From Octopus vulgaris (taxonomy: Eukaryota), in contig OX597826.1 in NCBI GenBank assembly GCA_951406725.2, positions 32,984,001 to 33,048,000 of the forward strand: a stretch of DNA of 64,000 nucleotides, read 5' to 3'. The position numbers were made by a program, and so were the translations under genes. Positions 548-57,271 of the stretch are shown here, piece after piece (the stretch's first letter is position 1; the number at the start of each line of letters is the position of its first letter). The notes beneath the pieces were generated by a model. It was not told the origin of the DNA and did no database searches. It worked only from the letters and a program-made list of their open reading frames with translations.

Positions 548-1406
548 CTTTCGTTTATTAGCCACACAGGGCTGAATACAGAGGGGACACATACAAATGC
601 AGAGCTTTTCTTTTCGAGGGTGGAAAAAAAGAAAATAAATGTAAGATTGCGATCAAAAGGGATCGAGAGGAGAAAAGCCTACAGAAAAGACCACGGGAAC
701 CTCAGTCAGGGAGGAAATAACCACATGAGATCAAAATGCTCTCTTTCTTTCTTTTTTACGATCTACAGGATCATGCTCAAAATGGTTTCATTACTAGCAC
801 GCACCATCTTTGCAACATTCACCCATCTTTTTGAATCTTTCGCGAGACAAAACTTCCCTCTCCATTCTCACCTTCCTTTTCAAGTGGTACTTGAAAAAGT
901 TGATGAGCGATTGGCCAGAGAGGTAAGTGTTTGTCTCTAATCCTTTCGCTTCGAGTCCACCACACACATTCTTTCACCATGGCCACCAGTACGATGAAAA
1001 CTGCCTTGCCTTCCCGGTTGAGGGAAGGGGGTGGAGCAATTCTCACGATAGATTCGGCCGATAGGCGGATACGTCCCACATGTGACAGCAGCCGTTCGGC
1101 ATAAGCCCACAGGTCGGAAATGGTTGGACATTGCACGAGTGCGTGCAGAATGGTTTCGTCGCTCTGACCGCATCTCGGGCAAGTCGGTCCAGTGTGTCTG
1201 GAACCGTGACTGTAGAGCTTATCCCGAACAAGTAATGCTTCTCGATAGCACTGCCAGGCCAGGGATCTTTGGTGATTGTTCATAGGTCCCGGCCCGAAAG
1301 TTGTCCTGAACAGGCGGGTCAGGTGTTCCTCGTCGACGCCCAGACTCTGCCCGAGTTCGTCGTCGCACCTCCCCTCCACTAATCCTCTATAGAATGCCTT
1401 TGTTGT

Positions 1407-1407
<1 letters not shown>
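548..1407 (-). mobile_element. 5'-truncated Tx1/L1-clade LINE: ORF2 C-terminus (zf-RVT-like zinc knuckle) plus 3' UTR, embedded in (GATA)n
   Basis: ORF 819-1379(-) has SLAWQCYREALLVRDKL..TCPRCGQSDETILHALVQCP..LW, a typical CxxC..H..C knuckle of L1/Tx1 ORF2; 3' end with AATAAA near 555-560; (GATA)n on both sides. Confidence 0.85.
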
Positions 1408-1479
<72 letters not shown>

Positions 1480-1511
1480 GGATAGATAGATAGATAGATA
1501 AATAGACAGAC

Positions 1512-1602
<91 letters not shown>
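1408..1602. repeat. (GATA)n microsatellite
   Basis: Direct inspection. Confidence 0.95.
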
Positions 1603-2071
1603 CAAAAGTTGTTGCAGCTAATAAGAGGCTAATCTTCATTGCTTTTAAATCTCAATAGATAACAGGATTTCAAAAGCTACACTATTCGGGCTCAGTCAAT
1701 TATTTTCCAATGTGGTCATGAAAATTGCAAATTCATAAGATTATTGAGGCATTTTGACTTTGTCTTCATATAATTTCTTCAGGATAAGTCAACCCAAGGG
1801 GACACAGTCCTTATCTAAACCAAATTAATAGGAGAGATTCAGACTGTTGGACAGGGACACTAAACCTGATTTTGTCTTTTAGCTTGTTGTCCACCATCCA
1901 CACTTTATTGCTACAACAATATCCACCCTTTAACCCATACACACCCATAAAATAATGAAGTCTTGACATTTCACTGTATTTAGATTAAACATTATGGTAA
2001 GCTTTCACGATCTGGAAGAGAAGGACAGTATGCAACTGTTAGCTATGAATGTCAACTACCTACGGAACATT

Positions 2072-2374
2072 ATTTACATTATTTATATTTAACAGATATT
2101 TGTCCTCATCTTGTTTGTTGTTAACCCAACCCTAAAATTCACTTCATAATTGCCCATGGGCATATGGCATAAAGGTGTAGTGGTTAAGATTCCAAGTTCG
2201 ATTCCAAGCAGTGACCTGAATAATAATAATAATAATGATAATAATAATAATAATAATAATAATGATAATAATAATAATAATAATAATAAAAATGATGATG
2301 ATGATGTTGATGATGAGGATGATGAAGATGATGAGGATGATGAAGATGATGACGACGATGACGACGACGACGAC

Positions 2375-2419
<45 letters not shown>

Positions 2420-2591
2420 AACATCGAAAAATACTTTGGGAATGAGAACATAGGTTCGAAATTACTCCAAGACACCTGATGAAGGCTGGAGGGTATATCA
2501 GCCGAAACGTTGTGCTAACAAGATGAGGACAAATATCTGTCAAATGTAAATAATGTAAATAATTCCTCATCTCTTAAATATAGAATTGTAT
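2072..2591 (+). mobile_element. tRNA-headed hammerhead element, locus 1 (inverted tail ~2072-2130 + direct copy ~2131-2590)
   Basis: A/B-box-like head (gtagtggttaag..gttcgattcc), (AAT)/(GAT)n core, hammerhead 2471-2516; degenerate flanking direct repeat tacctacggaacatt 2057-2071 / tgcctgtggaacatt 2592-2606. Confidence 0.85.
2471..2516 (+). ncRNA. Minimal type-I hammerhead ribozyme motif (Penelope-like)
   Basis: GACAC-CUGAUGA-A-GGCUG(GAGGGUAUAU)CAGCC-GAAA-CG-UU-GUGCU: intact catalytic boxes, 5-bp stem II, loop-less palindromic stem III (AACGUU). Confidence 0.75.
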
Positions 2592-18857: not shown

Positions 18858-19161
18858 ATTTACATTTGACGGATATTTGGCCTCATCTTGTTTGTTGTTA
18901 ACATAACGTTTTAGCTGATATTACTCTCCAGCCTTTATGAGATGTCTTAGGGAAATTTCGAACCTGGGTTCTCATTCCTAAGGTATTTTTCGATGTTGTT
19001 GTTGTTATTATTATTATTATTATTATTCAGGTTACTGCCTGGAATTGAACTCGGAATCTTGGGGTTAGTAGCATGCGCTCTTAACCACTACACCATATGC
19101 CCATCAAATGTAAGTAATGTAAATAATGTACATAGTTCCTCATCTCTTAGATATATAACTG
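18858..19161 (-). mobile_element. tRNA-headed hammerhead element, locus 2 (inverted copy 18858-19101 + direct tail 19103-19161)
   Basis: Family sequence with decayed core; flanks taagatctgacatt 18844-18857 / taatatctggcatt 19162-19175 (TSD, 12/14). Confidence 0.85.
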
Positions 19162-29646: not shown

Positions 29647-29947
29647 TTAATCCTTTAGCTTTCAGATTATTACTCTGTCAAGCATAATCCTTATTTATTC
29701 ACATTATTTTGAATTAATTATGTATTTTCTTGTACCTTTGTGAATTCAATGATGTGATCGTTTATTTTTAGACTGATATTGTAGGGTAGATTATTTACAT
29801 TATTTACATTCGATGGATATTTGTCCCGATCTTGTTTGTTGTTAACACGTTTTGGCTGATATACCCTCCAGCCTTCATCGGGTGTCTTGGGGAAATTTTG
29901 AACCTGGGTTCTCATTCCAAAGGTATTTTTCGATGTTATTATTATCA

Positions 29948-30005
<58 letters not shown>

Positions 30006-30018
30006 CATTATTATTATT

Positions 30019-30064
<46 letters not shown>

Positions 30065-30256
30065 TCACTGCCTGGAATCGAACTTGGAGTCTTGGGATTA
30101 GTAGCCCATGCTCTCAACTATGCCATATGTCCGTGGACAATTATGGAGTGAATTTTAGGGTGTATAAATCATATGATGTAGTGGTTAAGAGCGTGGGCTA
30201 CTAACTCCAAGATTCCAAGTTCAATTCCAGGCAGTGACCTGAATAATAACAATAAC

Positions 30257-30287
<31 letters not shown>

Positions 30288-30545
30288 TCGAAAAATACCT
30301 TAGGAATGAGAACCCAGGTTCGAAATTTCCCCAAGACACCTGATGAAGGCTGGAGGGTATATCAGCCGAAATGTTGTTAAGAACAAACAACATGAGGACA
30401 AATATCTGTCAAATGTAAATAATGTGAATAATGTACATAATTCCTCATCTCTTAAATATAGAACTGTATTGTAGGGTAGGTGTGAGATGCTGGATCTGGC
30501 TTATTTGAACATAAAACATGTAGAATATCTGGGCTGGACATGGCA
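29647..30545. mobile_element. TTAA-flanked piggyBac-like MITE split by the fold-back hammerhead element
   Basis: ttaatcctttagc.. left end; halves join at duplicated tattgtagggtag; intact relatives at 41420-41648 and 42330-42548 (..aatgctaaagggttaa). Confidence 0.7.
29790..30466. mobile_element. tRNA-headed hammerhead element, locus 3: head-to-head inverted dimer
   Basis: Minus copy ~29790-30168, plus copy ~30170-30466; perfect 13-bp TSD tattgtagggtag 29777-29789 / 30467-30479; hammerhead 30335-30378. Confidence 0.9.
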
Positions 30546-41419: not shown

Positions 41420-41648
41420 TTAATCCTTTTGCATTAGGATTTCTTTATCAAATGAAATGCTTATTTATTTGTATTGTTTTGAATTAATCCTGCATTATCT
41501 TGTAGCTTTGAGGTTTCAATGACGTGATAGTTTTGGTTATAGAATGACATTGTCAAGCAAGTCTGAAAGGTCGGATGTGGTCAGTTTGAACATAAACTGG
41601 ATAGAATATTCGGGTCGAACATGACTGGATTAAATTCTAAATGGTCAA
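41420..41648. mobile_element. piggyBac-like MITE (TTAA ends)
   Basis: ttaatccttttgcatt...aattctaaatggtcaa; homologous to 29647 and 42330 copies. Confidence 0.6.
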
Positions 41649-42329
41649 AGTGGTTCACTGGTGAAGCCGTTAGCATGCTGGACAAAATGCTTAGTGGTGA
41701 TTTTGTCTGTCTTTACACTCTGAATTCAAATTTGCTTTTCGTCCTTTTTGTAGTCAATGCAATAAAGTACCCGTGAACCATTGGCACTGATGTGACTTTT
41801 CCCCTCCCCTCAAATCGATGAACTTGTTCTGGGTCAGAGCAAACCTGGAAACAACAACAGCTAAGTGATGGTTCCACACTCCTGAAAATCCTGGGACTCC
41901 TGGACCAGACTCACTACCTGCTCATTCTCTTAACATGTAAGTTTTCCATAGATACTGGTATCCTCAGTGTAACACAATACATAACACGACTATACCTTTT
42001 GATCCAGACTTCTTTATAGTTTCTATCCATGCAATTTCACTTACAAGCACAGGGTGATCTGGGCTATAGAAATGATGTGTGTCCTAGCTGCTGTGCAGTG
42101 AGATCGAACCCCTGACCTTATGGTTGTGAAGGAAAGCTTTTAACTATTTGGCTAAACCATATCTATACATATATACATATATACATATATACGCACATAC
42201 ACATATGCATGTTGCCCTTCTGTCATCAGGCAATATGCTATGCTTGAGAAGACCTGTTGAGTCAGGTTGATGCCAGTGCCACCTGACTGGCACCCATGCC
42301 AGTATGTCAGTGGCACATTAAAAAGTACC

Positions 42330-42548
42330 ATTTTTGCATTATTCTGCCAAAATTAATTCTTTTTTATCCACATTGCCTTGAACTAACCAAGCATTAATCT
42401 TGGTGCTATGAGATTTTGATGAGGTAGCTGTTAATTTTCAAAACAATATTGTAGGGTTGGTATGAGAGACCAGATCTGGCCAGTTTGAGCATAAAACAGG
42501 CAGAATACTTTTGGCCGGATATGGCCGGTTTAAATGCTAAAGGGTTAA
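42330..42548. mobile_element. piggyBac-like MITE
   Basis: Ends ggccggtttaaatgctaaagggTTAA. Confidence 0.65.
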
Positions 42549-45800: not shown

Positions 45801-46794
45801 GACATTTGAGGAAGATGAATTCAGAATAAAAAAGTTATTTATGTAACCAAATATTGAATTAGTCAAGAAATATATACAACAAAAAATGCGATAGAACCAA
45901 CGTTCATATGAATGCATCAAAATTTGTTTCAACCACAAGGAGAAGTCATTGTTATTGTACTTTGTACTTAAAATTATCAGACAAATAGTTAAAAAAATTT
46001 GAGCTGTCTGTATCTTCTCTGCACTCAGTAGGAAATCTGTTCTAAAAGTTTCTTAAAATGATGAACTTTTGACACCAAAATGTCAAGAGAATCAAAAGTG
46101 CACAACATACAAAAGCTTGTTAGAATGCTTATATGCTTTGGATATACACTTTAATTCTCAAATGACATCAGAGTTTATATTGTTTTAATTTAAAGTATAA
46201 CCAAAATCTTTTTACAGTTATTAGATATATGTTTTCCCAAAATATGTAACAAGAAAATCGAAAATAGAAACTGAATTGAAGTTGGTCATTCTACTACTGA
46301 GAATTTTGCAACATAGCAGTAAAATAATGATATGAATTCATCAACTATCTACAACACTATGAAATACAATTGCATTTTTACAATAATATATCTTCTAAAA
46401 ATGAAATTATTCAAATTATTTCATAGCTCAAAGGCGTTGACTAATAAGGATTCTAACAATGAAACCTTTCAAAACAAGTTATAATCATCATGAATATATT
46501 TTCATACTCCAGCAAGAAAATTAGGCTTAAATTTCCCCCTGTGTGAGTTTTAATATCCATAAATTAAAATGTTCATATAGAAAGGGAAAAAGTCATGAGT
46601 TTGATGCTTTAACAACCAGTGCAGTAATGTTTGTCAGCTTTGCTTATCAGAGAACAAACAAAAATTCTGTTCCACAATAGAAACATCCAGTCATAAATGA
46701 GAATCGGTTATATTTTGCTACCAAGTTGTGTTTTACTTTAAGAAATTTAAACAGAAGGAGAATAAGATAGTTACACCAATTATAAGACTACACT

Positions 46795-47064
46795 GGCATA
46801 TGGCGTAGCAGTTAAGAGTGAGGGCTACAAACCCCAAGATTCTAAGTTCAATTCCAGGCAGTGACCTGAATAATAACAACATCGAAAAATACCTTAGGAC
46901 TGAGAACCCAAGTTTGAAATTTCCTCAAGACACCTGATGAAGGCTGGAGGGTATATCTCAGCTGAAATGTTGTGTTAACAACAAACAAGATGAGGACAAA
47001 TATCCATCAAATGTAAATAAGGTAAATAATTTACATATTTCCTCATCTCTTAAATATAGAACTG
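46795..47064 (+). mobile_element. tRNA-headed hammerhead element, locus 4 (single direct copy, very short AAT core)
   Basis: ggcatatggcgtagcagttaagag..gttcaattccaggcagtgacc..gacacctgatgaaggctg..gaaatgttgtgtt..ctcttaaatatagaactg. Confidence 0.85.
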
Positions 47065-47329
47065 CATGAATTTAAGTTGTTGTAAATATTAATATTTATT
47101 TATACATAAATTGTCAATAAACATTATATAATAATTCAGAATATATTCATCTATGTTTATCTTTAATTGTCTGGAGAGTCTAATAAAAGGCATGCGTCTA
47201 TGTTCTAGCATCAACTAACATATAAAGTTTGATGAACTACTTTCCAAATGACTTTGTAGAAGTTAAAACTCTTGAAGTTGTCTGATGAGCTTCTACAAGA
47301 AATGGTAAGTATTGTCTGTTAAATAAAAG

Positions 47330-47883: not shown

Positions 47884-48042
47884 ATCATGTACATTATTTA
47901 CATTATTTACATTTGACGGATATTTGTCCTCATCTTGTTTGTTGTTAACACAATGTTTCGGCTGATATACCCTCCGGCCTTCATCAGGTGTCTTGGGGAA
48001 ATTTTGAATCTGGGTTCTCATTCCTAAGGTATTTTTCAATGC

Positions 48043-48104
<62 letters not shown>

Positions 48105-48207
48105 TCACTGCCTGGAATCAAATTTGGAATCTTGGAGTTAGTTGTGGTTAAGAGTGAAGGTTACTAATCCCAAGATTCCGAGTTCAATCCCAGGCAGTGA
48201 CCTGAAT

Positions 48208-48241
<34 letters not shown>

Positions 48242-48413
48242 ACAACAACAATAATAATAATAATAATAACAACATTGAAAAATACCTTAGGAATGAGAAC
48301 CGAGATTCGAAATTTCCTCAAGACACCTGATGAAGCCTGGAGGCTATATCAGCCAAAACGTGTTAACAATAAACAAGATGAGGACAAATATCGTCAAATG
48401 TAAATAATGTAAA
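47884..48413. mobile_element. tRNA-headed hammerhead element, locus 5: head-to-head inverted dimer
   Basis: Minus copy ~47884-48141, plus copy ~48143-48413; TSD taaaaggaagga 47872-47883 / taaaagggagga 48414-48425. Confidence 0.88.
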
Positions 48414-56806: not shown

Positions 56807-56807
<1 letters not shown>

Positions 56808-57018
56808 GCAGTGGTTAAGAGCACAGGTTACTAATCCCAAGATTTTGAGTTCGATTCCAAGCAGTGACCTGAACAATAATAATAATGATAACAGTGAAAA
56901 ATACCTTAGCAATGAGAACCCAGGTTCGAAATTTCCCCAAGACACCTGAAGAAGGCTGGAGGGTATATCAGCCGAAATGTTGTGTTAACAACAAACAAGA
57001 TGGGGAGAAATATCCGTA
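56807..57018 (+). mobile_element. tRNA-headed hammerhead element, locus 6
   Basis: gcagtggttaagagc..gttcgattcc..gacacCUGAAGAaggctg..cagccGAAAtgttgtgtt (56941-56986). Confidence 0.85.
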
Positions 57019-57271
57019 GAAAATTACCAATTATCATCTACTTAATGACTACTTAACTTTTTATTTCAAAAAAAATTTTTCTTTTATTCTTTTATTTGTT
57101 TCAGTTATTTGACTGTGGTCATGCTGGAGCGTCACCTTTAATCAAGCAAATCGATCCCAGGAGTTATTCATTGTAAGCCTAGCACTTACTCTATTGATCT
57201 CTTTTGCGGAACATCGGATGTCAACCGATGGTGGGTGGGGGACAAACAAAGACACACAAATACATATACAT

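Follow-up and report, generated by a model that had tools for sequence, protein, structure and literature searches.

How a pair of related sequences came to lie head to head inside another transposon, as one piece or as two, from what element and by what route, is the question raised by positions 29790-30466 of the window studied here, a 64,000-nt stretch of the Octopus vulgaris genome (contig OX597826.1, 32,984,001 to 33,048,000, forward strand). Unless an L number marks another locus, all positions refer to this window, and its features are collected in Table 1. A first-pass annotation had described the pair as a dimer between perfect 13-bp duplications, and we can confirm this: the unit measures 677 bp, the duplications at its two ends are identical (by sequence and by script), and the 13-mer at 29777-29789 and 30467-30479 has no third occurrence within the window. 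The left arm (29790-30170) is the element in reverse complement and the right arm (30170-30466) is direct; they agree at 134/148 body and 61/72 head positions, about 85-90% overall. The left, tail-less arm extends ∼40 nt further 5′, including the last ORF codons, and only the right arm is tailed. The predicted RNA fold of the unit reaches -372.9 kcal/mol, compared to -139 ± 7 for shuffles (z -34), with a stem of ∼270 bp, bearing out the earlier expectation that such insertions leave long hairpins behind. No host gene was recognised in the ORF list of the window.

The host repeat decides the number of events. Among 20 pairings of the left and right flanks in other repeat copies, 13 join at gap 0 with a single target 13-mer, 2 carry small deletions, and the remaining 5 pair different neighbouring copies. 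Because 13 intact copies of the MITE hold the 13-mer once, the 677-bp unit is a single insertion with a 13-bp target site duplication (TSD). The proposals that the dimer splits a MITE, and that it arrived in one event rather than as two SINE insertions, are both upheld, since one TSD spans both arms and the host MITE is intact without the unit. The element family is also present in contigs of two other organisms, which show the same MITE joint, from paralogous copies, with the unique flank uncovered there and in one raw-read run. At our locus the host MITE is missing its right terminal repeat after ∼30544. Further copies with TTAA/CCC-type terminal repeats, which we take to be piggyBac-like, lie at 41420-41660 and ∼42330-42548.

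Table 1. Features of the head-to-head unit, its host MITE and the other copies of the family in the window
Feature	Position	Strand	Basis
Host MITE, left part (TTAA/CCC-type terminal repeat, decayed)	29648..29776	+	joins right part at gap 0 in 13 other copies; terminal repeat in other copies
TSD, left copy, 13 bp	29777..29789	+	sequence
Tail-less arm: pLTR body, from internal start (∼body position 155) via mutated hammerhead to ORF start	29790..29935	-	profile match, body 2-155
(AAT)n tract, inverted arm, expanded to ∼125 nt	29936..30060	-	sequence
tRNA-like head, inverted arm	30061..30132	-	profile and sequence
Spacer upstream of head, with last PLE ORF codons; absent from right arm	30133..30170	-	same sequence after GIY-YIG stop codon in L052, L059, L117, L184
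tRNA-like head, direct arm, from head position ∼+4 (A box, B box)	30170..30241	+	profile
(AAT)n tract, direct arm	30242..30285	+	sequence
PLE ORF, first ∼54 codons, within pLTR	30306..30466	+	frame unbroken into ORF in 5′ pLTR copies L223, L207, L218, L221, L210
Minimal type I hammerhead motif, slightly decayed at this locus	30336..30379	+	inspection against PMC4209133
∼30-nt tail, right arm only	30433..30466	+	unpaired in predicted fold; tail ends cluster at body position 182-187
TSD, right copy; first 4 nt also match element RNA past tail	30467..30479	+	sequence
Host MITE, right part, without terminal repeat	30480..30544	+	MITE copy comparison
Second head-to-head unit, TSD 11/12, no full tail on either arm	47884..48413		profile and TSD scoring
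Third unit, TSD 12/14; tail arm only ∼65 nt, tail-less arm up to head	18858..19161		profile and TSD scoring
Fourth unit, TSD 11/13 (or 12/15); tail-less arm only ∼65 nt, tail arm 29 nt past head	2072..2591		profile and TSD scoring
Single pLTR copy, tailed, without inverted arm	46791..47066	+	profile
Single pLTR copy, 3′ end missing, without inverted arm	56807..57021	+	profile

Judged by the sequence that surrounds its copies, the repeated element is the pLTR of an autonomous Penelope-like element (PLE) with reverse transcriptase (RT) and GIY-YIG endonuclease, not a SINE as the monomer had been called. The pLTR (tRNA-like head, (AAT)n, minimal hammerhead, ORF start, tail) is contiguous with a coding PLE and is therefore the end of that element. 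In three copies from a random sample (L052, L059, L117), what precedes the tRNA-like head on its 5′ side is the end of a GIY-YIG-type ORF, and we accordingly dropped the idea of a separate SINE that borrows the PLE enzyme. The 3′ pLTR is placed after the ORF stop codon, upstream walking reached RT motifs in L184, L181, L186 and L204, and in 5′ pLTR copies the tail leads into the ORF in a single frame, so that the 3′ end of the pLTR unit falls inside the ORF and the whole unit is a terminal repeat of the coding element. The majority of the aligned copies forms one 838-aa frame from an ATG inside the pLTR; individual copies lie ∼4-5% from this majority and their frames are broken. At the protein level, the RVT_1 match (E 1.3e-4) is below the cut-off and the TERT match weak (E 0.23), while 5 of 7 homologues carry PF00078. 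The endonuclease call is made from the motif and a weak alignment to the Pfam-positive domain of another PLE (E 2e-4), the Pfam GIY-YIG model giving no match to the endonuclease of this element. The CX2-5CxxC zinc-finger linker between RT and endonuclease is absent in L183 and L184, which is the mark of the Penelope/Poseidon clade in PMC8557442. Of the features of endonuclease-bearing (EN+) PLEs, we thus find the single RT + GIY-YIG ORF, two pLTRs with the ORF start, the inverted 5′-truncated copy with its one-ended tail inside a single TSD, and the minimal type I hammerhead motif in the pLTR; of those of a tRNA-derived SINE, we find the tRNA-related head with A and B boxes, but no non-coding, separate element.

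The Penelope-like nature suspected in the first-pass annotation is thus substantiated by RT motifs, the GIY-YIG-type ORF end and the pLTR structure, and the idea of a new insertion mode gives way, because the architecture is the standard published one: an inverted pLTR, a one-sided tail and a TSD are textbook PLE features (PMC3846280, PMC8557442). As far as sequence can tell, the unusual part is a candidate tRNA-type promoter inside the pLTR.

Several other elements came to light as well. Genome-wide Pfam GIY-YIG matches belong to other PLE families, the pLTR differing at the 20 loci examined. Many of these matches, with L037 and L042, represent a second PLE family that is younger and keeps its 781-aa frame intact at numerous loci; its 3′ region is a long tandem repeat, and its pLTR is unrelated. 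At L039:2810-3150 (oriented), an inverted pair of a different minimal hammerhead beside a PLE shows the head-to-head pattern again. A 254-aa open frame adjoins a PLE copy at L173 (-), presumably resembling a sulfotransferase exon, and window positions 819-1628 (-) hold a LINE-type ORF end fragment with a CCHC-like motif.

The head of the majority sequence agrees with genomic tRNA-Arg genes at 49/73 positions (z about 7 versus shuffles), tRNA-Arg being the best among a comparison set of 35 distinct genomic tRNAs of only 7 amino-acid types. ARAGORN called no tRNA in the window and 34 loci, and Rfam returned no tRNA or hammerhead match for the unit and one of the best copies. The hammerhead has the core CUGAUGA, one bulged base, a G-C closed helix II, GAAA-CG-UU and a helix I of 4-5 bp; by these features it matches the minimal type I hammerhead as described in PMC4209133, and its core is kept in 84 of 215 sampled copies. 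Among 66 body-truncated arms, 46 start at positions 86-130 and 11 at 40-85, a broad excess just 3′ of the cleavage site; since 5′ ends show no sharp pile-up at the site itself, hammerhead cleavage in vivo is only putative. LINE 3′ ends and other repeats occur in or beside the pLTR (AAT)n tract, often separating head from body (L009, L012, L059); we take these LINE ends to be Dong/R4-like. A separate cluster of seven tRNA-like genes, mostly tRNA-Cys, lies within 3 kb at L323:138-2854. In an unbiased sample of 120 evenly spaced 10-kb stretches (1,199,700 bases) we found 15 insertions, or about 12 per Mb, 6 of them inverted; extrapolated from these 15, the genome would hold roughly 35,000. At L259-L285, 14 of 30 tail-ORF-junction loci stop 200-266 nt into the ORF past the tail, where a further piece of pLTR follows, and L262 and L268 share an identical junction at a stop inside the ORF; these stops suggest internally deleted non-autonomous derivatives or a further start or jump zone.

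The family has six copies in the window. The three further dimers proposed there (Table 1) are all real, as are their duplications, and the inversion junction is indeed variable, differing widely among pairs. The proposal that the left arm is always inverted holds only in the sense that it is true of any head-to-head pair, as the tail may be on either side. Nor does that arm begin in the 3′ tail: the motif found there marks an internal site, and the true end lies ∼30 nt further downstream. Across 47 classifiable pairs (loci chosen by body, head or ORF rather than tail, the random sample and the window, duplicates removed), exactly one arm is tailed in 43, with 2 tail/tail and 2 without a tail (P 3e-9 versus 0.5); 3 of 50 tail-unselected pairs were unclassifiable, 15 tail-selected pairs are left out of the count, and most pair sets are best-scoring search matches rather than random ones. 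Tails end at body position 182-187, and tail-less ends are looser, at about 135-165, ∼25-50 nt upstream. In an automatic comparison of 5′ reach, blurred by missed heads, the tail-less arm is longer by at least 25 nt in 24 of 58 pairs, the tail arm in 17, and the two are within 25 nt in 17; a manual tally of clear cases gave 18 versus 8. The tail-less arm is longer by up to 1.7 kb (L190), and tail arms may be as short as 40-90 nt next to partners of up to 1.8 kb. The 5′ ends of the two arms stop independently of each other.

Tail/no-tail pairs score at least 9 for a TSD in 31 of 57 cases, compared to 1.0% of 1064 mismatched flank pairs; the modal TSD length is 12-13 bp, and 26 of the 57 are without a TSD above threshold. 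Arms of the same insertion have 27 non-consensus, non-CpG variants in common over 43 pairs, versus 6.4 ± 2.4 when re-paired, and none of 2000 permutations was as high; the complex locus L016 was excluded from this and from the TSD analysis. Among individual pairs, the arms of L186 have 8 shared variants in 714 sites (above any of 25 other copies), and those of L310 none in 208. Arm divergences are uncorrelated (rho -0.09), and about 87% of derived variants are unshared between arms, most arising after insertion. Microhomology at the outer junctions is 1.3-1.4 nt at both ends versus 0.4 in flank controls, a figure biased upwards by TSD extension and affected by register errors in the repeated end motif.

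We regard each such unit as one pLTR insertion of the autonomous PLE, in which two rounds of target-primed reverse transcription, both templated by one RNA, probably produced the arms. The PLE protein, probably a dimer, would cut both target strands ∼12-13 nt apart; one 3′-OH would act as primer where the tail ends, the other ∼30 nt away at the internal site. Both cDNAs would grow in the direction of the RNA 5′ end; the second would either displace the first or come to a halt immediately 3′ of the hammerhead, and the two cDNA 3′ ends would then be joined and filled in at a variable junction. Many short arms start just 3′ of the hammerhead, as would happen if one RT were held up by the other ahead of it, or by the structure. 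A weaker extension is that most copies would stem from internal priming in the 5′ pLTR of the transcript, so that reverse transcription ran off where the transcript begins, at the tRNA-like head. The origin of the inverted repeats and one-sided tail of PLEs is called open in PMC8557442 and PMC11167929. In vitro, the green anole element Poseidon_Ac is reported to cut and extend both strands, with a predicted dimer and two internal starts delimiting the tail (PMC11167929); as that account finds the two start sites used without strand difference, it leaves the one-tail rule unexplained.

The reading that we found in print is self-priming (PMC3846280), and head-to-head palindromes are interpreted in this way there. 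As a rival here, one cDNA (or an antisense template, as that paper proposes) would copy itself, and later deletions at the centre would make the arms unequal. Such fold-back, also the mode named in the first-pass annotation, would account for the private variants common to both arms, and many junctions fall on a 12-nt palindrome (head -7 to +5), where several single copies show an apparent snap-back of a few nt. A fold-back copy must nest in its template, however, and it fits poorly with the 24 of 58 pairs, and the locus at 29790-30466, in which the tail-less arm is the longer; large one-sided deletions would be needed every time, although non-nested arms could also result if a palindrome that was perfect at first lost sequence asymmetrically from its centre. 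Tail-less single copies (L232, L234, L242, L255, L292, L295) moreover show that reverse transcription starts at the internal site independently, in line with the in vitro work (PMC11167929). From the non-nested pairs and these singles we infer two primings, and consider fold-back unlikely. Whether the two primings used one RNA is a finer point: non-nested arms with independent 5′ ends would arise without strand displacement if each target strand were primed on its own RNA molecule, the two held by protein or by a hammerhead dimer, and minimal hammerheads are described as acting as dimers (PMC4209133). The preponderance of unshared variants would also agree with two molecules, though most postdate insertion. 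The 4-fold excess of shared variants points instead to one RNA or one donor locus, as does the tendency of both arms to derive together from a 3′-pLTR-type template, and these two observations favour one RNA; the shared variants could instead reflect later gene conversion in the hairpin, or fold-back. Two RNAs would not by themselves give the one-tail rule, and we hold this version to be improbable. The abundance of the family and the recurrent junction type in L005, L167 and L311 are what one would expect from separate SINE insertions, two per unit, or from an inverted master or MITE that is fixed and copied as a unit. That reading is largely refuted and very improbable: one TSD surrounds both arms, the host MITE is intact without the unit, 20/29 and 20/29 search-selected loci are inverted pairs with widely varying junctions, and L005 has the recurrent junction with tail and tail-less roles swapped.

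The 5′ ends pile up at the tRNA-like head, with 88 of 99 head-reaching arms stopping between -15 and +15 (hazard 0.03-0.05/nt versus 0.003-0.006 upstream), a count partly inflated at -7 by the 12-nt palindrome. The 5′ pLTRs L223 and L263 begin at +4 and -3. Among partner arms of 3′-pLTR-derived arms, only 4 of 11 stop at the head (manual tally, P 2e-4), still above background; RT stalling at the tRNA-like fold could be an alternative cause of the pile-up. The 2,643-nt unit contains no T4 run, with about 3 expected in the ORF (codon shuffles, P 0.022-0.027), and there is none in 5,007 nt of real open frames, compared to 6-7 per 1.8 kb in another PLE family and 0.8-4.2 per kb in other retroelements; the absence reaches only P about 0.02, and other retroelement ORFs are as low as 0.8-1.5 per kb. 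Together, the 5′ pile-up and the lack of T4 runs suggest Pol III transcription, and the tRNA-like head is likely the Pol III promoter of the PLE, which would explain why its products resemble tRNA SINEs. We put the full scenario forward tentatively, as possible rather than probable: a tRNA-Arg gene captured into the pLTR would let Pol III transcribe an autonomous coding PLE, which would have cleared its 2.5-kb ORF of T4 terminators and would mass-produce tens of thousands of strong-stop-like ‘SINEs’ whenever both target strands prime on one RNA within the 5′ pLTR.

In the titles and abstract openings that we searched, we found no PLE with a tRNA or Pol III head and no PLE twin priming; subscription papers, Repbase/Dfam and supplements (including the repeat library of PMC13282606) may differ. 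With its ∼35,000 insertions, the family is a source of countable rules: a tail on one arm only, arms that do not nest, and a shared template. If the tRNA head is the promoter, a coding retrotransposon would be made by Pol III, and some annotated cephalopod ‘tRNA SINEs’ would be PLE ends. Hairpins in transcripts may feed A-to-I editing.

In L1 twin priming, the second target strand primes at an internal site of the RNA that the first is already copying, and an inverted 5′ segment inside one TSD is left. The pairs L252, L256 and L304 are near-pure inversions of this kind; unlike in L1, the second site of the octopus element is fixed ∼30 nt from the end, and the arms usually duplicate hundreds of nt rather than abutting. 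The tRNA SINEs OK, OR1 and OR2 were reportedly found in octopus by Ohshima and Okada in 1994, and OR1 and OR2 are of tRNA-Arg origin; they share with our element a tRNA-derived head in an octopus. OR1 and OR2 are cited as CORE-SINEs in PMC4758252 and PMC4824008. The SINE-like Sm-alpha and Sj-alpha hammerhead repeats of Schistosoma likewise place a Pol III-type promoter before a hammerhead, but are described as tandem non-coding repeats with canonical hammerheads (review PMC6765202), whereas the octopus module is contiguous with a coding PLE.

The closest known relatives are other PLEs. Adineta Pen2a (PMC3846280), Drosophila virilis Penelope (PMC2377424) and PLEs in general (PMC8557442) share the ORF of ∼840 aa with RT and C-terminal GIY-YIG the ORF start in the pLTR, the adjoining inverted 5′-truncated copy, the 30-40-nt tail at one end, the unit-wide TSD and the pLTR-internal promoter, a candidate one in the octopus element. 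That promoter is of the TATA/Inr or DPE type in these PLEs, whereas the octopus head is tRNA-Arg-like with A and B boxes; the octopus TSD mode is 12-13 bp as opposed to 8-10 bp in Adineta (PMC3846280), and the octopus family differs in consisting mostly of solo pLTR pairs at high copy number. Poseidon_Ac (PMC11167929) has a hammerhead over the ORF start as well; its tail is bounded by two RT starts, it cuts and extends both strands, and it is predicted to be a dimer, all as we propose for the octopus element. The available part of that paper mentions no tRNA head of the kind carried by the octopus element. Whereas Poseidon_Ac in vitro shows no strand preference and no primer homology (PMC11167929), the octopus insertions carry the tail on exactly one arm in 43 of 47 pairs, and their ends show slight microhomology.
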